A program made the position numbers and the translations under genes. Positions 11,143 to 56,031 of a stretch of DNA of 64,000 bases are shown here, in pieces (the stretch's first letter is position 1; every line of letters starts with the position of its first letter). Where the stretch lies: the NCBI RefSeq assembly GCF_035084215.1, contig NC_090325.1:196726001-196790000 (forward strand), given 5' to 3'. The notes beneath the pieces were generated by a model. That model had not been told where the DNA came from. It was given only the letters and a program-made list of their open reading frames with translations, and ran no database searches. This DNA comes from Heptranchias perlo. Its lineage: Eukaryota.

Positions 11143-12797
11143 CTTGTTAACAAGAAAAGGCAGAAACTTTAGAAGCATTTCATTTTCCTCAGAGATGCAG
11201 CATTCTCTCTAAAATACTCAGATTAGTCTCATGGCCCCTCAGTCTTCCCAATAATGTTTAAAAATGAGGATAGAGTGGAGCTCCTGGATTCTAATTTCTG
11301 ACAAAGCCATTTTTCCTCTACATCTGAATGTCCTTCAAATAAAAGGAAAAATGTGAAGAATGTTAGCAGCATTCCAACTGTACAGCACTTGATCTGCATG
11401 GAACAACTGAATTATGAGATGTGTAGTTTCTGAATGGAGTTGGCATTTGGTCCATTGCACCACAAAGGGTTAAACTATCTAAGGGGTTTAATCGGACGAT
11501 TCTGAGGTTAAATCGCCATCTCTGAACCACACAGATTCGGAGGCTTCAATACTCCGTCTGTGTTGACTTATCTGATCTTAGCCGGAGTAGCAGTAGAGCT
11601 GACTGCAGCATTCCTATTGGCCATTTTTTTTTATCATCACTAACCAACAATCCCTACTGAAAGTGTGCGTGTGTACATGTACGTGCATGCGTATGTGTAC
11701 ATGTGTGCGTACATGTATGTGTACATGCGTGCATGCGAATGCACCAACTGAGATCAGGATCAGGTTCAGTTGTTAAGTCCCCCACAGTCAGTCACTTCTA
11801 GCTCTCACTGTCAAGACTCTCAGATCAGTTGAGCAAAGTACTGGAGACCAAAGCAGTGAGAGAGTAAATGGGGGATAGGGAATGGAGAAAACTGGAGAGG
11901 ATTTTAAAGAAAACAGCTCAGGGTGTGAATGTGGGGACTCCCCTTCCATGATCCAGTTCAGATAATTCTCCCAAACTCAGAAACAGACAGTACTGTTCCA
12001 TAAAAAGGCTACATCCAGTATGTGGCATTTACATTTTGAAGAGATGCCTGCAGTTACTGAATGTACTATTTAAACTGACTTCACCTGTCACTCAGTTAAG
12101 ATCATATCTAGCTGACATACATGCTTAAATTTGAATCTTTAAGGGTTCCCAGTGCATTAAATTATTGGCCTGTGCACCTCAAATTCCCCAATATTCACTC
12201 CCTTTGGGAAGTCGCTGCACCTGGAGCATGAAGATGAAAATTTAACCTTAGTCACAGATCATAACACATCCCAGCGACACACAGAACTTCTCAATGTGTG
12301 AAGCCAGGTGGTAGTAACATAGAGGTATTGCTTACCAACCTCACAAGGCTCTCATTACATTGCAACACCACAAGTTATAAAACAAACAAGAATGACTATT
12401 TCTGTATGTAATGGGACAAAGGTAACTACACATGCAGCATTGAATTACTGACCTTCACCACTAAAGTTAATTTTAGACACCCAAGAACAGCTGATGTGAC
12501 TGAAACCAGGAGAGGGCGTCTTCTGGTAAATTGTCAAATCAGCAGTCACCCAGAACAATTGCAACATTCAAAACAACTGCGACTTAATAAAAACATTTAA
12601 CAGTTTCTGCAAAGCAAGTTATCAGTTAATCAGCTGTACGACTGGACTACGCTGCGTGCTGAACATGATTTAATGGGATTATTTTAATTAGTCAAAGGGA
12701 ACTGACACCATTAACTCATGTGATTTATTTACTTGTCTGGCATTTCCAAACAACAATTTCCAGCTACTGAAAAATAAATAGTTGCACTATTACATAC

Positions 12798-13016
12798 CCT
12801 TTCTAAAGTTGAGAGAGATGGCCAAGACTGAAAGCCGTATTCAGATGCAAATCTCGTCTTTGGAAAATGTGTCCAGTCCCAACAGTCGGTTATGTAATTA
12901 TAATAGTGGGTATCACCATAACGGACATCGTAAGGGTTCTTGGCAACCCACTTCTCCTGAATGGATTCCTCTCCGTTAGTGGGACTTGAAGCAATATAAG
13001 GACGAGTCCTGTCCTC
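12798..13016 (-). CDS. MANBA: MANBA exon 12 (nucleophile Glu in RFASEYG)
   Basis: EDRTRPYIASSPTNG...FPKTRFASEYGFQSWPSLSTLER; 219 nt; cccag| and |gtatgt. Confidence 0.97.
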
Positions 13017-13090
13017 CTGGGAACAGATGTTTAAAATATTCGTGAAGCAGTCGCTCTGGGTGAGTCTGTGCTAATCATAAAAATACTGAA

Positions 13091-13272
13091 ATAAAAATAA
13101 GGAAATGCTGTAAACACTCAGCAGGTCAGGCAGCATCCGCGGAGTTAAACGTTACAGGTCGATGACCTTTCATCAAGCACTCTCTCCCCACAGGTGCTGC
13201 CTGATCTGCTGAGGGTTTCCAGCATTTTCTATTTTTATTTCAGATTTCCACCATCCACAGTATTTTGTTTGT
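13091..13272. mobile_element. 182-bp fold-back Penelope-derived element (family 2)
   Basis: 14-bp direct repeat ATAAAAATACTGAA at 13077-13090 and 13273-13286; ~50-bp inverted arms at 13091-13142 and 13187-13238; degenerate hammerhead between them. Confidence 0.78.
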
Positions 13273-13559
13273 ATAAAAATACTGAATATAGTTAAATGGC
13301 TGATATTGTCTTTTGGGAGCAAACTCAGTTCCTTATTCAACAAGAAACAGACTGCTGGATAAAGCTGCCAATCACCATTCTGGGGAACAGATTGTGTTGC
13401 ACCAGATACTCCACCTGTAATACAATCTAGCCGCCCGCAAATTCAACAAGTTTTGCTAACAATATACCGGTAATGAGCAACTGTTGATGCAATGTTGATT
13501 AGTCCTTACAAATAGCATGAGATGTTTTGCTTGATTTTCTTACAAGAATGCCTTACTGC

Positions 13560-13800
13560 TTCCTAGAGTGAGACTGCCAATTTGTGCTGAATCACAGGCA
13601 GCGTGGTGCAATGTACCTAAGGCCACTAGAAACAACACTGAGACTAACCCAAACTTATTCCACATAAGACCCTCACAGCAAGTAGCGAAAAGAGATTGTG
13701 ATCCAATTAGCCTGGGCTGGATTCAAAGCCGGGTCGTAGAGGTGAATGAGCCTTAAACTAACCCATCTCATCTCATTTCTCAGTCACTGTACTCCAAACC
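13560..13800 (-). mobile_element. Ancient LF-SINE-like fragment
   Basis: Minus strand TTCACCTCTACGACCCGGCTTTGAATCCAGCCCAGG ... TATGTGGAATAAGTTTGGGTTAGTCTCAGT resembles the recalled LF-SINE head and body. Confidence 0.5.
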
Positions 13801-14056
13801 CTTCAGTTCTGCTTTCGCAAAGAAGTGCATCTGTGGTAAAAAAAAACATCTGACTGTAAAGTCAGTTTTGATTCTGGAGAAGGCTGTTAAAGAGTCCTTA
13901 AAAAGGCATATACATTTCTTGAAGAGTTGCCTATGATGACTCTAAAAGGGGTGCAGGAACAGAGAGATCTGGGGGTTTATATACACAAATCATTGAAAGT
14001 GGCAGGGCAGGTTGAGAAAGTGGTTAAAAAAGCACACGGGATCCTGGGCTTTATAA

Positions 14057-15780
14057 CCCGACCAAAGAACACACCCATCAGCTCAACAAACTGATCAAGA
14101 CCTTCGATCCAGACCTTCAAAGCATCCTACGCACTCTCATCCCACGTACTCCCCGCGTGGGAGACTTCTACTGCCTCCCAAAGATACACAAAGCCAACAC
14201 ACCCGGACGTCCTATCGTATCAGGCAATGGAACCCTGTGTGAGAACCTCTCTGGATACATCGAGGGCATCCTGAAACCCATCATACAGGGAACCCCCAGC
14301 TTCTGTCGCGACACTACAGACTTCCTACAAAAAGTAAGTACCCACGGACCAGTTGAACCAGGAACACTTCTCACCACGATGGACGTCTCGGCACTATACA
14401 CCAGTATCCCCCACGATGACGGCATCGCTGCGACAGCATCAATACTCAACATCAACAACAGCCAATCTCCGGACGCCATCCTACAACTCATCCGCTTCAT
14501 CCTGGATCACAATGTCTTCACCTTTGATAACCAGTTCTTTACCCAAACACACGGAACAGCCATGGGGACCAAATTCGCACCCCAATACGCCAACATTTCC
14601 ATGCACAAGTTCGAGCAGGACTTCTTCACTGCACAAGACCTCCAACCAACACTATAAACCAGATACATCGACGACATTTTCTTTCTATGGACCCACGGCA
14701 AGGAATCACTAAAGAGACTACACGATAACATCAACAAGTTCCATCCCACCATCAAGCTCACCATGGACTACTCCTCAGAATCAGTTTCTTTCTTGGATAC
14801 ACGAATCTCCATCAAAGACGGGCACCTCAGCACCTCATTCTACCGCAAGCCCACAGACAACCTCACGATGCTCCACTTTTCCAGCTTCCACCCTAACCAC
14901 GTCAAAGAGGCCATCCCCTATGGACAGGCCCTGCGAATACACAGGGTCTGCTCAGACGAGGAGGAACGTGATGGACACCTACAGACGCTGAAAGACGCCC
15001 GAGTAAGAACGGGATATGACGCTCGACTCATCGATCGACAGTTCCGACGGGCCACAGCAAAAAAATCACATAGACCTCCTCAGGAGACTAACACGGGACA
15101 CAACCAACAGAGTACCCTTTGTTGTCCAGTACTTCCCCGGAGCGGAGAAACTACGCCATGTTCTCCGCAGCCTTCAACATGTCATCAATGACGACGAACA
15201 CCTCGCTATGGCCATCCCCACACCTCCACTACTCGCCTTTAAACAGCCACCCAACCTCAAACAGACCATCGTTCGCAGCAAATTACCTAGCTTTCAAGAG
15301 AACAGCGTCCACGACACCACACAACCCTGCCACAGTAACCTCTGCAAGACATGCCAGATCATCGACACAGATACCACCATCACACGAGAGGACACCACCC
15401 ACCAGGTGCATGGTTCATACTCCTGTGACTCGGCCAACGTTGTCTACCTCATACGTTGCAGGAAAGGATGCCCCGGAGCATGGTACATTGGCGAGACCAT
15501 GCAGACGCTGCGACAACGGATGAACGGACACCGCGCAACAATCGCCAAACAGGAGGGTTCCCTCCCAGTCAGGGAACACTTCAGCAGTCATGGACATTCA
15601 TCCACCGACCTTCGGGTAAGCGTACTCCAAGGCGGCCTTCGAGACACACGACAACGCAAAATCGTCGAGCAGAAATTGATAGCCAAGTTCCGCACCCATG
15701 AGGACGGCCTCAACCGGGATCTTGGGTTCATGTCACGCTACACGTTACCCCACCAGCGAACAAATGTTATCTGTTTTTAA
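14057..15780 (+). pseudogene. Disrupted Penelope ORF (one nonsense codon, one frameshift)
   Basis: TAA at 14655-14657 just before TRYIDD; frame change in the A-run near 15059-15065; natural stop at 15778-15780. Confidence 0.88.
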
Positions 15781-16013
15781 TATAACGGGTCAGTTGCTGT
15801 CTTTTCTATGTTTCTACCTCTCTATCTCTGTTTTTTTTTGTTTTTTGTTTTTTTTTGGTGATTTGTATATTCGGAGACCTTGCAGGTAACACCTGTCTGT
15901 CTGCACACTGATTGCCTTGGCAACGGGCAGTTGAAAAAACTGTCTGTAATCACCAAGCATTGTTCTGTGAATTATAAATGCGATTTCATTTCGAGGATTT
16001 CATTTCCACATCG

Positions 16014-16052
16014 TTCACCTGAGGAAGGAGGAAGCCTCCGAAAGCTTGTGAA
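16014..16052 (+). ncRNA. Minimal type I hammerhead ribozyme motif, copy 1
   Basis: TTCAC-CTGAGGA-A-GGAGG-AAG-CCTCC-GAAA-GC-TT-GTGAA: stem I, CUGANGA core, stem II, GAAA, palindromic AAGCTT stem III, UH. Confidence 0.82.
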
Positions 16053-16264
16053 TTTAAAATAAAATTGCTGGACTATAACTTGGCGTTGTAAAATTGTTTA
16101 CAATTCTCTTTTTTTTGTTTTTGGGGGTTTGTATATTCGGTGGCCTTTTTAGGTGACACCTTTCTGTCTGCTCACTGTGATTGCCTTGGCAACGGGCAGT
16201 AATCACCAGGCATTGTTCTGTGATTTTAAAATGCGAAGGATTCGAAAATGTTATTTCCACACCG

Positions 16265-16303
16265 TTCACCTGAGGAAGGAGGAAGCCTCCGAAAGCTTGT
16301 GGG
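16265..16303 (+). ncRNA. Minimal hammerhead ribozyme motif, copy 2
   Basis: Same core; stem I TTCAC/GTGGG with G-U pairs. Confidence 0.78.
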
Positions 16304-16627
16304 ATTAAAAATAAAATTGTTGGACTATAACTTGGTGTTGTAAAATTGTTTACAATTTATAAATAGAGGCACAGAGTACTAAAGTATGGAAGTCAAGATG
16401 AACCTTTGTAAAACACTGGTTCGACCACAACTGGAGTATTGTGTCCAGTTCTGGGCACCGCACTTTAGGAAAGATGTGAAGGCCTTAGAGAGGGTGCAGA
16501 GGAGATTTACTAGAATGATTCCAGGAATGAGGGACTTCAGTTACGTGGATAGACTGGAGAAGCTGGGGTTGTTCTCCTTGGAACAGAGACGGTTGCGAGG
16601 AGATTTGATAGAGGTATTCAAAATCAA

Positions 16628-16666
16628 TTCACCTGAGGAAGGAGGAAGCCTCCGAAAGCTTGTGGA
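16628..16666 (+). ncRNA. Minimal hammerhead ribozyme motif, copy 3, in a ~92-bp solo Penelope end (16627-16718) inserted in CR1
   Basis: Same core; the insert splits CR1 AAAATC|ATGAAGGG. Confidence 0.78.
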
Positions 16667-18197
16667 TTTTAAAATAAAATTATTGGACTATAACTTGGTG
16701 TTGTAAAATTGTTTACAAATGAAGGGTCTAGACAGAGTAGATAGAGAGAAACTGTTCCCATTGGCGGAAGGGTCAAGGACCAGAGGACATAGATTTAAGG
16801 TGATTGGCAAAAGAACCAAAGGCAATATGAGGAAAAACTTTTTTACACAGCGAGTGGTTAGGATCTGGAATGCACTGCCCGAGGGGGTGGTGGAGGCAGA
16901 TTCAATCATGGCCTTCAAAAGTAAACTGGATAAGTACTTGAAAGGAAAAAATTTGCAGGGCTACAGGGATAGGGCGGGAGAGTGGGACTAGCTGGATTGC
17001 ACTGACAAAGAGCCGGCATGGACTCGATGGGCCGAATGGCCTCCTTCCATGCTGTAACCTATCTATGATTCTATGATAGTGCCGGAGATTTGCTGGTCCT
17101 TTTGAAACTGTTCCAGCCCAATAGCTAAGATCTGTAAATCAAGTTAAATGATGGAATAAAATTAAAATGGCAGCAGATACTTGATCAATGTAATACCTGT
17201 TAGTGCCATTAAACGTTTCATATGATTATCTACTTCTCTTATCGATGTTTGTATAGATTCATAGAAAAATCGTAGAATCATACAGCACAGAAGGAGGCCA
17301 CTTGGCCAATCACGCCTGTGTCGGCTCTCTGAAAGAGCTATCCATTAATCACATTCCCCCTTGGCCCTGCAAATTTGTTCTTTTTAAGTACAATTCAAGT
17401 CACAAATTGCACCTGTTGCTTCTTGCCAATTAAATCCCACTGCACTCTGTGTAGGATCATGTTAAGCTGGCTCTGTCAGCAAGTACCTTTACTTCCCTCA
17501 GATTCTGAGACATTTTGGGGCTATCACTCCTCTGCTTCACACCCTGCGTGTTTCTATTTTTGGGACACAAAGCAGAGGAACACTGGCTGGAGATCTCTGT
17601 TACACCAGGTTATTGTTTCCGGGCACAGGATGTGAAGAGGCTGCTTCGTTGCACCTCAAAGAGGCTTTAGAATTTAAATAATACTGTAAGTGAGATCATG
17701 CGACATCGTACTGGCCTCCATTTCCAGTGATCATAAATCAGGTCCAGACTGACCCCCATTTAAATGAGGCGCTGAGTTTCATTGCACTGTGTTTCAAACA
17801 CTGACACATTTAAAGAGACAGACTTCAAGTTAGCGAGAAGTGCATTCATCCATTTTTGGACACTGTGCTGTTACAAATTGTGAGGTTTGCAGGTGCAGTA
17901 GCGGTGCCCTGGGGCAAAACTGGTGGACAGCTGTGCAGTTCTTGGATCCCTTTAATAGACTGGGGGGGGGGGGGGGGGGGGGGGAGTCCCATTTGCCAAA
18001 CCCCTGTGCTATTTTTGGGAGAGGATGAGGGGAACGAAAAACATGCATTTTTGGAAACCTACCCACCATTCCCCTGCTGGATGAATGTATTGGTCCCAGA
18101 GGGACCTCCCTGGAACCTCACAAAGGAGCAAAGTCATCACCAGCTTTGACTGACTGGCGAAGTAATCGGAGAGATATGCGACCTGCTGCCACATTCC

Positions 18198-18450
18198 ATG
18201 GCACTGCCAATGGTAGGCAAGTTGACCACTGCCCTGAATTTCTTCACGTCGGGGTCTTTCCAGGGGGACCGTTGGGGAGATATGGCCATCAGTCAGTCAG
18301 CAATCTATCAATGTATTAAACAAGTCACTGATGCTTTGTTTGCAAAGCACCTACATCCCGTTTCCCATGTATCACAGGGAGCAAGAGCCCCAAGCACGAT
18401 TCCCCAAAGACCAGGGGATAATAGATGGCACCCACGTAGTCTTGGGTGCT
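18198..18450 (+). mobile_element. Degenerate PIF/Harbinger transposase fragment
   Basis: ALPMVGKLTTALNFFTSGSFQ...ISQSAIYQCIKQVTDALF, then in a shifted frame FPKDQGIIDGTHV (first catalytic Asp of HARBI1-like DDE enzymes). Confidence 0.78.
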
Positions 18451-18619
18451 CCGGGTTTGGGGGGGGGGGGGGGGGGAGGGGAGCGGGGAGCTTGGGAAGA
18501 GAAGAGCACAAGAATTTTAAATGAGAGGCGGGAGGGATGGAACAACATTGATTACATAAACTTTTCATAAAACAGGTTCATCGCTCCCAGTAACAACAGA
18601 AATGTTAATGTACGTTTAT

Positions 18620-19012
18620 TCACCACCGGCGCACCGTGGCTGCAGTGTGCACCATCCACAGGATGCACTGCAGCAACTCGCCAAGGCTTCTTCGACAGCA
18701 CCTCCCAAACCCGCGACCTCTACCACCTAGAAGGACAAGAGCAGCAGGTACATGGGAACAACACCACCTGCACGTTCCCCTCCAAGTCACACACCATCCT
18801 GACTTGGAAATATATCGCCGTTCTTTCATCGTCGCTGGGTCAAAATCCTGGAACTCCCTTCCTAACAGCACTGTGGGAGAACCTTCACCACACGGACTGC
18901 AGTGGTTCAAGAAGGCGGCTCACCACCACCTTCTCAAGGGCAATTAGGGATGGGCAATAAATGCCGGCCTCACCAGCAACGCCCACATCCCATGAACGAA
19001 TAAAAAAAAAAA
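18620..19012 (+). mobile_element. 3' end of a CR1/L2-group LINE (family B) with poly-A
   Basis: HHRRTVAAVCTIHRMHCSNSPRLL...SKSWNSLPNS...HHHLLKGN*; near-identical to 53205-54178 and 63570-64000. Confidence 0.85.
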
Positions 19013-19618
19013 TTCAAAAAGCCAGCACTCTTATGCAAGTTGAATGCTGACTCAGACCTACATTTACATACAGTGATCACAGGACTGTGCAAGTCGCCAT
19101 TATTCACTTGTGCTTTTTTAAAATTAACCTGCATGAGACCAATCTTCTAAATTAGTGTCAAAAATAATGAGTTTTACTACATTTTGTGCTGTAGAGTGTA
19201 CTCAGAGCGACAATAGTAACTTCAAAACTTACTCTATGGGCATCCAGACACCAGCAACAAATGGAACTGATGTAGTCAGTATTGATTAGATTCCAATGTG
19301 CTCAATCAGGCATGGATGAAGCTTTTACAGACAAAAACAAACAGCAAAGATAGTGCTGTTCCATAAGGAGCCTGTTTCCGAATTCTTTATGCTATTTGAT
19401 TCCCAGAAAAATAGATACATTGGACTTTAGTTGTGGGTTGATTTTTTTTTGACGGATCCAGTTCCCTGTGAACTCTATTTATAAATCAGAGCTCTCATCT
19501 GATCTGACGCCCCAAAGCACCAAACGGTATTACGTCTTGCTTTTTTTTAAAGCTCATGACTGTAACAGAATCACTGTCTATTTTTGGAACATTTCTTAAT
19601 TCTCAAGGATGTAAAACA

Positions 19619-19938
19619 CAACACAAGGTATACACCTCTCTCATCAACACAAGGTATACACCTCTCTCATCAACACAAGGTATACACCTCTCTCATCAAC
19701 ACAAGGTATACACCTCTCTCATCAACACAAGGTATACACCTCTCTCATCAACACAAGGTATACACCTCTCTCATCAACACAAGGTATACACCTCTCTCAT
19801 CAACACAAGGTATACACCTCTCTCATCAACACAAGGTATACACCTCTCTCATCAACACAAGGTATACACCTCTCTCATCAACACAAGGTATACACCTCTC
19901 TCATCAACACAAGGTATACACCTCTCTCATCAACACAA
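19619..19938. repeat. Perfect 26-bp minisatellite, ~12.3 copies (CAACACAAGGTATACACCTCTCTCAT)
   Basis: Directly visible; translation repeats every 26 aa. Confidence 0.97.
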
Positions 19939-20284
19939 CAAGCAGCCTGTCAAACTGACACTAAATTCTACACATTGCTGTAGTTGTGTAACATCACAAC
20001 CACATTGCAAACTGAAGGCTTGTCTTTATCCTGTGTATTAATTCGGGTAACTGAATAAGTAACAACCTGTTTTGCTGAAGAATACTTGTTTAGTTGTACT
20101 GACCCCCAATCCTCAACAGGTGCTTCATGTTAAGATGATGTTTGGCACATATCAAATTGTAGTACAGTAACATGATAGTCACTCAAGAATACACAGGGTT
20201 AAATTATTTATTTTTATTTAGAGTGGCTCATTGCTTTGGCAATCGTTGTTACTTAAGTTTACTGCATTATTTTATATTTATTAT

Positions 20285-20935
20285 ATAGAAATTTACAGCA
20301 CAGAAACAGGCCATTCGGCCCAACTGGTCTATGCCGGTGTTTATGCTCCACACGAGCCTCCTCCCTCCTACTTCATCTCACCCTATCAGCATATCCTTCT
20401 ATTCCTTTCTCCCTCATGTACTTATCTAGCTTCCCCTTAAATGTAGAGGGAGGAATTTTAGAATCATAGAAATTTATGGCACAGAAAGAGGCCATTCAAC
20501 CCATCGTGTCTGTGCTGTCCGAAAAAGAGCTATCCAGCCTGATCCCACTTTCCAGCACTTGGTCCGTAGCCCTGTAGGTTACGGCACTTCAAGGGCACAT
20601 CCAAGTACTTTTTAAATGAGTTGAGGGTTTCTGCCTCTCCCACTCTTTCAGGCAGTGAGTTCCAGACTCCCACCACCCTCTGGGTGAAAAAATTTCTCCT
20701 CAGCTCCCCTCTAATCCTTCTACCAATTACTTTAAATCTATGCCCCCTGGTTATTGACCTCTCTGCTAAAGGAAATAGGTCCTTTCCATCCATTCTATCT
20801 AGGCCCCTCATAATTTTATACACCTCAATTAAATCTCCCCTCAGCCTCCTCTGTTCCAAAGAAAACAACCCCAGCCTATCCAATCTTTCCTCAGGTAAAA
20901 TTCTCTAGTCCTAGCAACATCCTCGGAAATCTCCT
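20285..20935 (-). mobile_element. Two adjacent CR1 3' fragments
   Basis: ORF 20530-20883 LGLFSLEQRRLRGDLIEVYK...; two CR1 tails. Confidence 0.85.
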
Positions 20936-21985
20936 ATTGGTGTGTTGAGTTCACAATAACCGATTCAGGACAATAATGGCTGGTGACGCCTTTCATTCTG
21001 AAATGTAAAATTACATCACATACATTGTTAAAAACAATGTATGACTAAGGAAAGTGTAGACACATCTAATCCATTCTTGTGAAACTCACCATTAACACAA
21101 ATAATGTTAGCCGGAAAACAGACCCCGACAGTTGTGAACATAAGAAATAGGAGCAGGAGTAGGCCAGTCGGCCCCTCAAGCCTGCTCCGCCATTCAATAA
21201 GATCATGGCTGATCTGATCCTAACCTCAAATCTAAATTCATGTCCAATTTCCTGCCCGCTCCCCGTAACCCCTAATTCCCTTTACTTCTAGGAAACTGTC
21301 TATTTAAACATAAAATTACATTAAAATCTTTGAACCAACAAAGTGGAACTCTCCCCAATCATTCAGGTTGCCTGCCTAATTCTGTCGAGCTTCATTTTTC
21401 TGAATTCGGGCCCCAGTTGAGAGTTGAATTCTCCCTCTATTGCTTTTATAGTGAGGTAGATTTTTGAGCATCAAACCTAAACTCGTTACTGCTTTCAACT
21501 TCTGTATCCTGGCTTCATGCACTGATTCATTAAAAATCCTGCTGGTCGCATTGAAATTGGCTACTCAGGGAAGGAAACTTCTTTCTAATACCCAGTTCTC
21601 AATTTGAACCACTGCCCCTTGGACAATGTGGCAGCCTCAGTGCTGGCTAGCGGCTGTCTGAAGACAGAAAAATATTGAAGGTCCCTGCAACCATAGTCAA
21701 TGGTCAGGAGCAGCAGAAGGAGAGAGAAAAATAAGGAATGAAACTGGAAACATATTAACAGCAACGTGTAAACGATGCTAAGCTGGGAGAGGAGCAGCGA
21801 GGAGGACAGAATGGGAACCAGATCAAGGGGAGCAGGGAACACCATGTCAGGCAGGTTGGTAAGAAAACACAACAGCGAGATTGCGGGGAAGTAAACTGGC
21901 AGCAGCAAAACGGAAAAAAATGCAAAGGACTGTGATAGGTTGTAGTTGTTCAGAGGACAGAGCCTCAAGCCCTGCATGTCACTGT

Positions 21986-27395: not shown

Positions 27396-27781
27396 ACTAA
27401 ACAAGTCATACTAGTCAGTTTAAACACTATAGGGTAGATTTTGCTCGTTTGCACTTAATAGACAGAAGATCCTAGCAGGGGGAGCTCTACTCATCTGCCC
27501 GCCTAATATACACTCTGGTGACTGTACAAATCCGTAACATCTACCCTCAAATCTATTCCTAAAACGCTCTGAACATATTACCCAGAAGGTACTTACTTAA
27601 ATTATGAAATATACAAGTGTTCTACAAACCACTCCTCCTCCTCATATTTTCAGATCTTCAGAAATGTTATATAAACGATCCTTCAGATTTCATTGACTTT
27701 TTACAATTGTCAGTCAAAATTTCCTGACAATGCTGAGTGTAACTGCCTAAACTTTATTTGATACTTGAACTAGTTGCTTAC

Positions 27782-27949
27782 CTCAAGTACTATTTCTCTA
27801 ATATTATTAACATAGAGATGTACATAATCATCCAAGTACAGAGTTATGTTTGATGATGGAATATGGAACCAGTTTAATGCAAGTGCAGCCTCATTTTCAT
27901 TGTTTCCACTCCAAATTATGATGGACGGGTGGGATTTTAGTCGACGGAT
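27782..27949 (-). CDS. MANBA: MANBA exon 11 (acid/base Glu in WSGNNENE)
   Basis: [31 protein letters not shown]...[11 protein letters not shown]; 168 nt; ttcag| and |gtaagc. Confidence 0.97.
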
Positions 27950-28689
27950 CTGAAGGCAAAAAAGAAGCAAAATTTACTTAAACTAATCTAGCAAAAGACA
28001 TTTGTGGAGACTGACACCTAACAGAATTACAGGGCTGCAAACATAACAGATACAAAGAAGTGACCACCAATAAACAGCAAATTTAACAAACTGGAAGATC
28101 CACTCTTGATGCTTTTGGACATTTAGCTGGAAGGGAGGGCAGGGTCTCTGCAGAGGGGTGAAGAGATTATTGGATCTCATGTTAAAGAAGAACATTACAA
28201 CGTGTGAACAGAAACCAATGTAAACTGTTGTACATAATGGGTCAACAATTCAGAGCAGATGGACCAAGGGATGGTATTGGTAAAGCTGAAAACCTGTACA
28301 GTACTAGAACACTCGGGCTGTCCTGCAATATGCCACTATAAACGAAGGCACGTCCTGTTGCTTGTACCATATTTAAAACTCAAGAATCACATGATAAAAG
28401 GACAATTATACACTTTGCAGCTGCTGTTGAAGCAGATTTGCTCTTCCAACATTACGGGTAGTCGTGGATGTGCTCTCCAAGACTGTCACTCCACTAAACA
28501 TCAGGGCGAGTGTGCTCATGATTTCCAGATATGCACTCCCTGCAGGAAAGGCTCTGCACTGGGTGTGGGGAGGGGGTCACATTCATAAAATGTACCCTCC
28601 TAAGTCTATTTTTACTCTTCAGTTGGCAGAACATATCATCAGTCTTTCAGACATAGACTTTTCTTGGCAACATACATAACAGCAACATA

Positions 28690-55412: not shown

Positions 55413-55833
55413 TAAATGGTCTGAATGAAGAGATAGTGGGATTAATATAACTGTAGACCCATTCTGTCACATTCTTAATATCTGGCAGCCTATCAAAGGA
55501 AATGCTGAACAAAGGTTATCCATTTTCCATTGGATGGGGGAAAGGGGAATTAAAATTCATAAGGTGTCGCCTCTGTCTGCTTTCTTGCACTGCCAGGCAA
55601 CTGATTATAGCGATTTCCCATTTCAGCTGGGGAACTATAGAGGGCATGGGAAGATCCAAAGAGGAGATCATATTAAAAATATGGAGTTAGAAAAAGGGTT
55701 AGCAATGCCAATCTGCAACGTTCTCCGCAAAATTCAGAGACATGCTTCTTTTGGTGCTGGGAAACTCTTCTTGACTCAAGGTTATCCTCAGATCGCCTGA
55801 TATATACACTGGGACAATGCTGTTAAAAAGATC

Positions 55834-56031
55834 TTACAACACCAAGTTATAGTCCAGCAATTTTATTTTAAATTCACAAGCTTTCGAAGGCTTCCTCCTT
55901 CCTCATTTACCTGAGGAAGGAGGAAGTCTCCGAAAGCTTGTGAATTTAAAATAAAATTGCTGGACTATAACTTGGTGTTGTAAAATTGTTTACAATTGTC
56001 AACCCCAGTCCATCACCGGCATCTCCACATC
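55834..56031. mobile_element. 198-bp fold-back Penelope-derived element (family 1) carrying a hammerhead at 55906-55944 (+)
   Basis: 12-bp TSD GTTAAAAAGATC at 55822-55833 and 56032-56043; 55834-55905 is the reverse complement of 55912-55983; same sequence as the 3' end of the 14057-16355 element. Confidence 0.9.

Follow-up and report, generated by a model that had tools for sequence, protein, structure and literature searches.

Minimal type I hammerhead ribozymes are an established feature of the pseudo-LTRs (pLTRs) of Penelope-like elements (PLEs), and the available part of Cervera and De la Pena 2014 (PMC4209133) records them in fish Xena, Poseidon and Neptune elements, with an extra nucleotide lying between position 9 and position 10.1 and a palindromic 15.2-16.2 as conserved features. 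Here, we analyzed a 64,000-nucleotide stretch of the Heptranchias perlo genome (the window), in which three such motifs lie close together. In common with the motifs covered in that part of PMC4209133, they have a short stem I, no helix III, the same palindrome and extra nucleotide, a G10.1-C11.1 pair and a location in a pLTR, and they likewise belong to a population that runs to thousands, dispersed as single motifs or as pairs on opposite strands. They differ in stem II, which is 5 bp here and 7-8 bp in the Schistosoma families, and in that three same-strand copies lie within 650 bp, an arrangement that we attribute to nesting.

The element that carries the motifs resembles the Neptune-like EN+ PLEs as treated in the available parts of Craig et al. 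2021 (PMC8557442) and of the report on Adineta PLEs (PMC3846280). Common features are a reverse transcriptase (RT) with a C-terminal GIY-YIG domain, a CX2-5CxxC-type linker, a TATA/Inr-like pair within the pLTR and a tail of 30-40 bp; in both cases copies also form partial tandems, have inverted arms that are 5'-truncated and are found inserted in other non-LTR elements. The strong preference for one CR1-like site and the TATA-linked 5' ends that we describe below were not found in those parts of PMC8557442 and PMC3846280. With PAc, a Poseidon element of Anolis (Frangieh et al. 2024, PMC11167929, available part), our family shares two internal RT starts that bracket the tail, AT-rich targets and insertion from unprocessed RNA; however, the PAc hammerhead overlaps the ORF start, whereas in the intact element here it lies within the pLTR and the cut falls 92 nt upstream of the ATG.

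Animal non-LTR retrozymes, as far as the available text of Cervera and De la Pena 2020 (PMC7229834) and Li, Clavereau and Pollet 2026 (bioRxiv 10.64898/2026.07.22.740005) describes them, have type I hammerheads 150-450 nt apart, a derivation from pLTRs and a low GC content in common with this locus. Unlike them, the locus has no homologous repeating unit, no array and no amplification of a unit, and its hammerheads, in contrast to those of PMC7229834, are minimal and joined to a coding PLE remnant. Hammerheads in PLE pLTRs are already known, and the cluster itself matters little; the parts worth following are the TATA-linked 5' ends and the host-site hotspot.

The 26-nt hammerhead core occurs in three exact copies on the + strand (starts 16019, 16270 and 16633) and had no match in 100 shuffles. 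The initial annotation had described three minimal hammerheads with identical cores, a palindromic stem III and stem I variants that keep pairing, and this description is upheld: the 5' strand of stem I is TTCAC in all three, and the 3' strands GTGAA, GTGGG and GTGGA pair with it through Watson-Crick or G-U pairs. The local fold of each copy shows stem I and stem II closing the core CUGANGA...GAAA...UH. Folding z-scores of the single motifs (-1.67, -0.07 and -1.71) are unremarkable, so energy was left out as support for the hammerhead. A search with hammerhead models had also been proposed in that annotation, and the Rfam scan of 12000-21000 gave no hammerhead match at E<=10 and returned four chance-level matches. 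Judged by their sequence, the three motifs belong to the PLE-type minimal type I hammerheads, have a palindromic stem III and are predicted to self-cleave. Two further cores with 1-2 mismatches lie in the window as an inverted pair at 55881-55936; they fall in two short pLTR stubs of the same PLE family that form a fold-back, inverted pair at 55831..56031, in which one arm has the 37-bp tail and both hammerheads are slightly mutated.

Covariation was evaluated in 261 family hammerheads with an ungapped core, which span distinct subfamilies and are counted as copies, not as independent events. Pair 10.3-11.3 is AU in 226, GC in 23 and GU in 12 of them, pair 10.5-11.5 is GC in 186, AU in 37, GU in 19 and AC in 19, and stem I pair 4 is UA in 166, UG in 49 and CG in 31; two pairs of stem II and at least two of stem I thus show compensatory or wobble changes. 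Variation is limited to N7 (G in 208, C in 52), loop II and the stems. The remaining core positions are identical in at least 254 of the 261 copies, H17 is U in every copy, the extra A between 9 and 10.1 is present in 259, G10.1-C11.1 in 253, and 15.2 is G and 16.2 is C in 260 each. The core had been called atypical for its G at N7 and its extra A, a view that these data and the literature do not bear out: the extra A and the palindrome are the PLE consensus (PMC4209133, available part), and N7 is a free position in the descriptor 'cuganga' in the corresponding part of PMC8557442. Because the stems covary and the core is invariant except for N7, the hammerhead fold is, by this sequence comparison, under selection in the element lineage, which says nothing on the function of these three copies. 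Contigs of two other organisms (B and C) match in just two parts, the 3' end and the hammerhead, and all their indels fall in stem/loop II; a third run returned no match.

The family is abundant. Exact matches genome-wide number 11,754 for a 37-mer that spans the hammerhead and 56,569 for the 34-nt family 3' end, and many copies are inverted pairs. The ORF remnant in the window corresponds to residues 329-902 of the family protein, with about 97% identity to the 902-aa ORF of locus L185 (G000:C1:4459800-4469700); an in-frame stop interrupts it at 14655-14657, and its frame changes near 15061. At L185, PLE units of 3,081 bp stand head to tail; two 902-aa ORFs in the array are intact, a third unit is 5'-truncated, and the full-length units have the same pLTR as the window. 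Pfam gave weak RVT_1 and GIY-YIG matches for the ORF fragment of the window, both under the cut-off (GIY-YIG E 9e-4), and RVT_1 at E 3e-10 for the full 902-aa ORF, where no GIY-YIG domain was reported for the whole protein. A C-x4-C-x2-C linker is present in both the remnant and the L185 protein. The optional tail, 37 bp in the window pair, reaches the ORF start and is found on 82 of 214 ends. From its sequence features, the family is an EN+ PLE with an RT, a C-terminal GIY-YIG domain, tandem or inverted pLTRs and an optional 30-40-bp tail, and the linker motif by itself suggests the Neptune clade. A spacing of 3,082 bp, like that of L185, is also seen near C1:4435479-4438594.

The three motifs are embedded in a host element that runs from 13945 to 17075 and is interrupted twice, at 14057-16355 and at 16627-16718 (Table 1). 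We take this high-copy non-LTR host to be CR1-like; Pfam gave no match for two of its frames. The first interruption, element A followed by the 251-bp subfamily-B pLTR, is flanked by TTTATAA on both sides, and the B pLTR has 99.6% identity to ordinary single B copies (L089 and L090). The host middle part is continuous with 16719 onward in other host copies. The site of copy 3 is empty, with contiguous host sequence, in 22 of the 31 loci with enough downstream sequence, the window being one of the 31, and the exact CR1/copy-3 junction occurs once in the genome. The 92-bp hammerhead ends of the three copies are identical at 86-87 of 92 positions and belong to different subfamilies.

Table 1. Features of the hammerhead locus in the window
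Feature	Position	Strand	Basis or remark
Beta-mannosidase exon, downstream (in gene sense) of host intron	12852..13043	-	PDB 6ddt similarity
Host left part, CR1-like	13945..14056	+	Homologous sequence 5' of the PLE in 70/94 hotspot loci
7-bp duplication TTTATAA, first copy	14050-14056	+	Ends host left part
5'-truncated PLE ORF remnant (RT, C-x4-C-x2-C linker, GIY-YIG)	14057..15780	+	ORFs, weak Pfam, L185 identity
Element A pLTR (3' UTR; 5' UTR of following unit in tandem arrays)	15781..16104	+	Collinear with end of L185 3,081-bp tandem unit
TATA-like box (15973-15979) and predicted transcription start (near 16002)	15973..16002	+	Sequence; family 5'-end peak; start inferred
Hammerhead 1	16014-16052	+	Sequence, fold, alignment
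Hammerhead 1, stem I	16014-18/16048-52	+	
Hammerhead 1, core start; extra A	16019; 16026	+	
Hammerhead 1, stem II	16027-39	+	
Hammerhead 1, AGCU; predicted cut	16043-46; after 16047	+	
Subfamily B pLTR, 5'-truncated, starts at pyrimidine run	16105..16355	+	~81% identical to pLTR A
Hammerhead 2	16265-16303	+	Predicted cut after 16298
Host middle part ('CR1-containing' spacer), begins with second TTTATAA (16356-16362)	16356..16626	+	247 exact genome junctions
92-bp PLE 3' stub, 0-1 bp duplication	16627..16718	+	Junction unique; empty site elsewhere
Hammerhead 3	16628-16666	+	Predicted cut after 16661; carried by 92-bp stub
Host right (3') part	16719..17075	+	Comparison of host copies

We are confident that the three hammerheads are the 3' pLTR ends of one high-copy PLE family, likely assembled by two insertions into a single CR1-like element. 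In the first event, the PLE endonuclease would have cut the host at its favoured TTTATAAATAGA site, where a 251-bp subfamily-B cDNA and a 2.05-kb subfamily-A cDNA would have been joined head to tail within one target duplication; in the second, the 92-bp stub would have inserted 270 bp downstream in the same host. The order and number of events may also have been different, with A inserted later at the 5' edge of B, since the duplication here measures 7 bp and thus falls short of the 12 bp that is modal for the family's insertions at this site. The cluster is probably an accident of nesting rather than a dedicated circle-making cassette, and it likely has no function of its own.

The copy-1/copy-2 (A/B) junction has three exact copies, scattered in the genome. 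One of them, L034, has a B part 99.6% identical to that of the window, as would be expected if a composite source element (A ORF, pLTR A and pLTR B) had retrotransposed whole and its double-hammerhead end were a mobile family of its own. However, unrelated single B copies reach the same 99.6%, and 42 sites distinguish the A part of L034 from that of the window, at 22 of which both alleles are common to at least two other copies. Because the A parts carry different subfamily alleles at these 22 sites, the junction formed more than once, and the allele comparison largely refutes a composite source, which we regard as very improbable also in view of the mere three exact junctions in the whole genome. 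L034, in which three PLE pieces lie within one duplication of ~14 bp, had been considered as a sister copy, with A and B moving as one unit; the shared-allele differences and the equally close single B copies ruled this out. In L033, still other subfamilies are joined at this position of B, and 2 of 30 other B loci (L066 and L088) break at or beside the same pyrimidine run. Since the A part of L034 differs and L033 joins other subfamilies, independent recurrence of the junction where B-type cDNAs break at the pyrimidine run accounts for these cases.

The initial annotation had read the cluster as a retrozyme-like, self-processing cassette of tandem units. Its predicted cuts and the resulting lengths of 251 and 363 nt are arithmetically right, and the antisense relation to a MANBA intron stands as well. 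This intron is presumably intron 11, by human exon numbering. The host gene, beta-mannosidase, lies on the - strand (PDB 6ddt, E 4e-21), with exons near 27773-27973 and 12852-13043 on the two sides of the locus. The cassette itself did not hold up, given that the junctions are rare, the copies are of different subfamilies and nesting explains the cluster. TRF reported no 251- or 363-bp period and no array at the locus, the two predicted monomers agree in 204 of the 365 columns of their alignment, and their spacers are unrelated, one being pLTR and the other host CR1-like DNA. Amplification of a unit was assessed by exact junction matches, which diverged copies would escape; the A/B junction was found three times and the CR1/copy-3 junction once. 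Tandem frequency, which rests on junction counts and fetched loci, amounts to 13 same-strand hammerhead pairs less than 1 kb apart in the fetched loci, 2 of them from the window itself; the spacings range between 135 and 822, and one, of 363, is unrelated. The hammerheads are minimal and gave no Rfam hammerhead match; in the canonical type, loop 1 and loop 2 interact (PMC7229834). The cluster thus lacks each of the three retrozyme features that were tested, namely a homologous tandem unit, dispersal or amplification, and a canonical hammerhead.

An alternative reading is a nascent or accidental retrozyme, whose unit is not amplified. In such a case, the promoter of pLTR A would drive a + transcript through hammerheads 1-3, which would be cut as dimers into 251- and 363-nt RNAs that may circularise. 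Dimers of small PLE hammerheads reportedly cleave, as Lunse and co-workers are said to have described in 2017. At the locus, cut 1 is preceded by a TATA-like box and a predicted start 45 nt upstream, none of the three motifs is disrupted, and in a nested-dimer model the swapped stems I and a 4-bp AGCU/AGCU helix III can pair. In the available parts of the literature, animal retrozymes are proposed to be pLTR-derived (bioRxiv 10.64898/2026.07.22.740005), and the cleavage of minimal hammerheads as dimers and trimers is low but detectable (PMC4209133). We nevertheless consider this quite improbable, given the rarity of the junctions and the missing array. In addition, for three test spans the energy of the constrained dimer exceeds that of the folding ensemble by 13.7-17.1 kcal/mol, by a secondary-structure model that has no tertiary contacts or protein, and hammerhead 2 is predicted to be misfolded in the 319-nt minimum-energy fold. 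As far as the available texts go, expressed retrozymes have canonical hammerheads with loop-loop contacts while the minimal type is a mark of PLEs (PMC7229834), and among 9 Xenopus dimers tested, 8 showed no cleavage (bioRxiv 10.64898/2026.07.22.740005). Among the matches listed for the contigs of X1-X4, which come from one sample and of which none is on record as RNA, there were no starts or ends and no back-joint, and a circle junction would resemble an ordinary family member. A read-through transcript may still be cleaved incidentally.

To place the 5' ends of family copies, we collected 297 ends and kept the 214 chosen on the 3' end alone, dropping 83 that had been chosen on hammerhead or upstream sequence. 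Seven of the 214 start within 2 nt of the cut, 106 start 27-47 nt upstream of it, 17 start 48-79 nt upstream, and 57 extend at least 80 nt. The stop rate at the cut is 0.0070 per nt, about twice the 0.0037 and 0.0026 of its flanks on few events, and a small fraction of templates may be cleaved. Depending on the subfamily, the TATA-like box and the cut are 67 to 75 nt apart. In the best 3-nt window, 41 of 114 stops fall at TATA+29 to +31, as compared to 25 when measured from the cut, and none of 2000 label permutations reaches 41; for these figures, TATA positions were assigned after the data had been seen, the arms of inverted pairs are counted separately and the ends are not fully independent, and 134 of the 214 ends come from one hotspot. 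Copy 3 begins 35 nt upstream of its own cut and belongs to the class of short stubs. Two former interpretations were rejected: that 5' truncations mark the cut site (from L033 and L055), after multi-subfamily mapping, and that the end peaks at 30-31 in the first end mapping are truncations, as they reflect subfamily divergence.

As the 5' ends pile up 29-31 nt past the TATA-like box rather than at the cut, the pile-up suggests, as the simplest reading of these genomic sequences, that the RT runs off the 5' end of uncleaved RNA, for which we infer a transcription start at TATA+29 to +31. Templates that were cut and then re-ligated would look uncleaved too. The stops are spread over 27 to 47 nt upstream of the cut and show a shoulder at 34-35, the 5' edge of stem I, where copy 3 begins; this could instead come from RT stalling or from second-strand annealing after the hammerhead is unwound, so that the pile-up would not mark a transcript 5' end. 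We hold this to be unlikely, though not negligible, because the sharpest peak follows the TATA-like box across subfamilies with different TATA-to-cut distances, and because the stop rate drops from 0.063 to 0.007 per nt beyond the peak. Run-off from uncleaved RNA agrees with the unprocessed-RNA substrate of the anole element; the available part of PMC11167929 reports that the element inserts from unprocessed RNA, that the hammerhead needs protein and that no RNA-seq reads end at the cut. The promoter of Drosophila Penelope, which is internal and TATA-less (PMC2377424), counts against a TATA-directed start. The genomic 5' ends argue against cleavage setting the template 5' end and point to a candidate start site.

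The exact junction between the PLE end and the CR1-like host site occurs 247 times genome-wide, compared with ~0.14 expected from copy numbers, a rough figure in which the patterns differ in length; the host-site 21-mer alone has 16,517 exact copies. We compared 94 of the 247 loci, all among the first 100 listed. The left host flank was found in 70 of the 94, and target duplications have a modal length of 12 bp (38 of 58 scored). In the 30 loci that were laid out, the inserted pieces differ in length, subfamily and arrangement, and both orientations occur. Among ends not selected on the host site, 5 of 155 abut it. The host site is an insertion hotspot of the PLE, with independent insertions. 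It may depend on CR1-specific targeting or on a general preference for TTTATAAA or an AT-rich motif, and it offers a natural substrate for the study of endonuclease specificity. Neither TATA-linked 5' ends nor a CR1 hotspot for PLEs was found in the literature titles and abstracts searched. In the window, the hotspot site is 16356-16367.

These family-level patterns bear on what PLE hammerheads are for. Reverse transcription would start ~55 nt downstream of the cut, or ~92 nt with the tail, read through the uncleaved hammerhead and run off at the RNA 5' end, 29-31 nt behind the TATA-like box, which would leave many hammerhead stubs of ~100 bp. By analogy, the ribozyme would probably act at another stage of the cycle, cutting slowly and either as a dimer or helped by an element protein. 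With moderate confidence, we propose that the genome preserves a record of how this PLE family replicates: the RT would start in the 5' UTR, cross the uncleaved hammerhead and run off TATA-initiated RNA, and the strong-stop-like cDNA of ~100 nt would have been inserted tens of thousands of times, at roughly a thousandfold over chance at one CR1-like site. The hammerhead would then be structurally selected though templates are mostly uncut, and chance head-to-tail clusters would provide raw material for retrozymes.

Other arrangements of the family were also observed. At L004 (G000:C1:838250-841286), L202 and L203, three or more clustered pLTR stubs lie in (TC)n/(GA)n-rich flanks, which suggests repeated insertion into the same local repeat. 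L033 (G000:C4:82271953-82274978) is a nested fold-back, in which an inverted pair of a divergent subfamily is centred in an inverted pair of another subfamily. Elsewhere in the window, a short inverted-repeat element at 13104-13226 has a weak, chance-level miRNA-like Rfam score and is likely a small repeat. An inverted, ~75% identical fragment of the host 3' end (16925-17056 versus 17281-17400) lies 224 nt downstream, and the two fragments could form an intronic double-stranded RNA.
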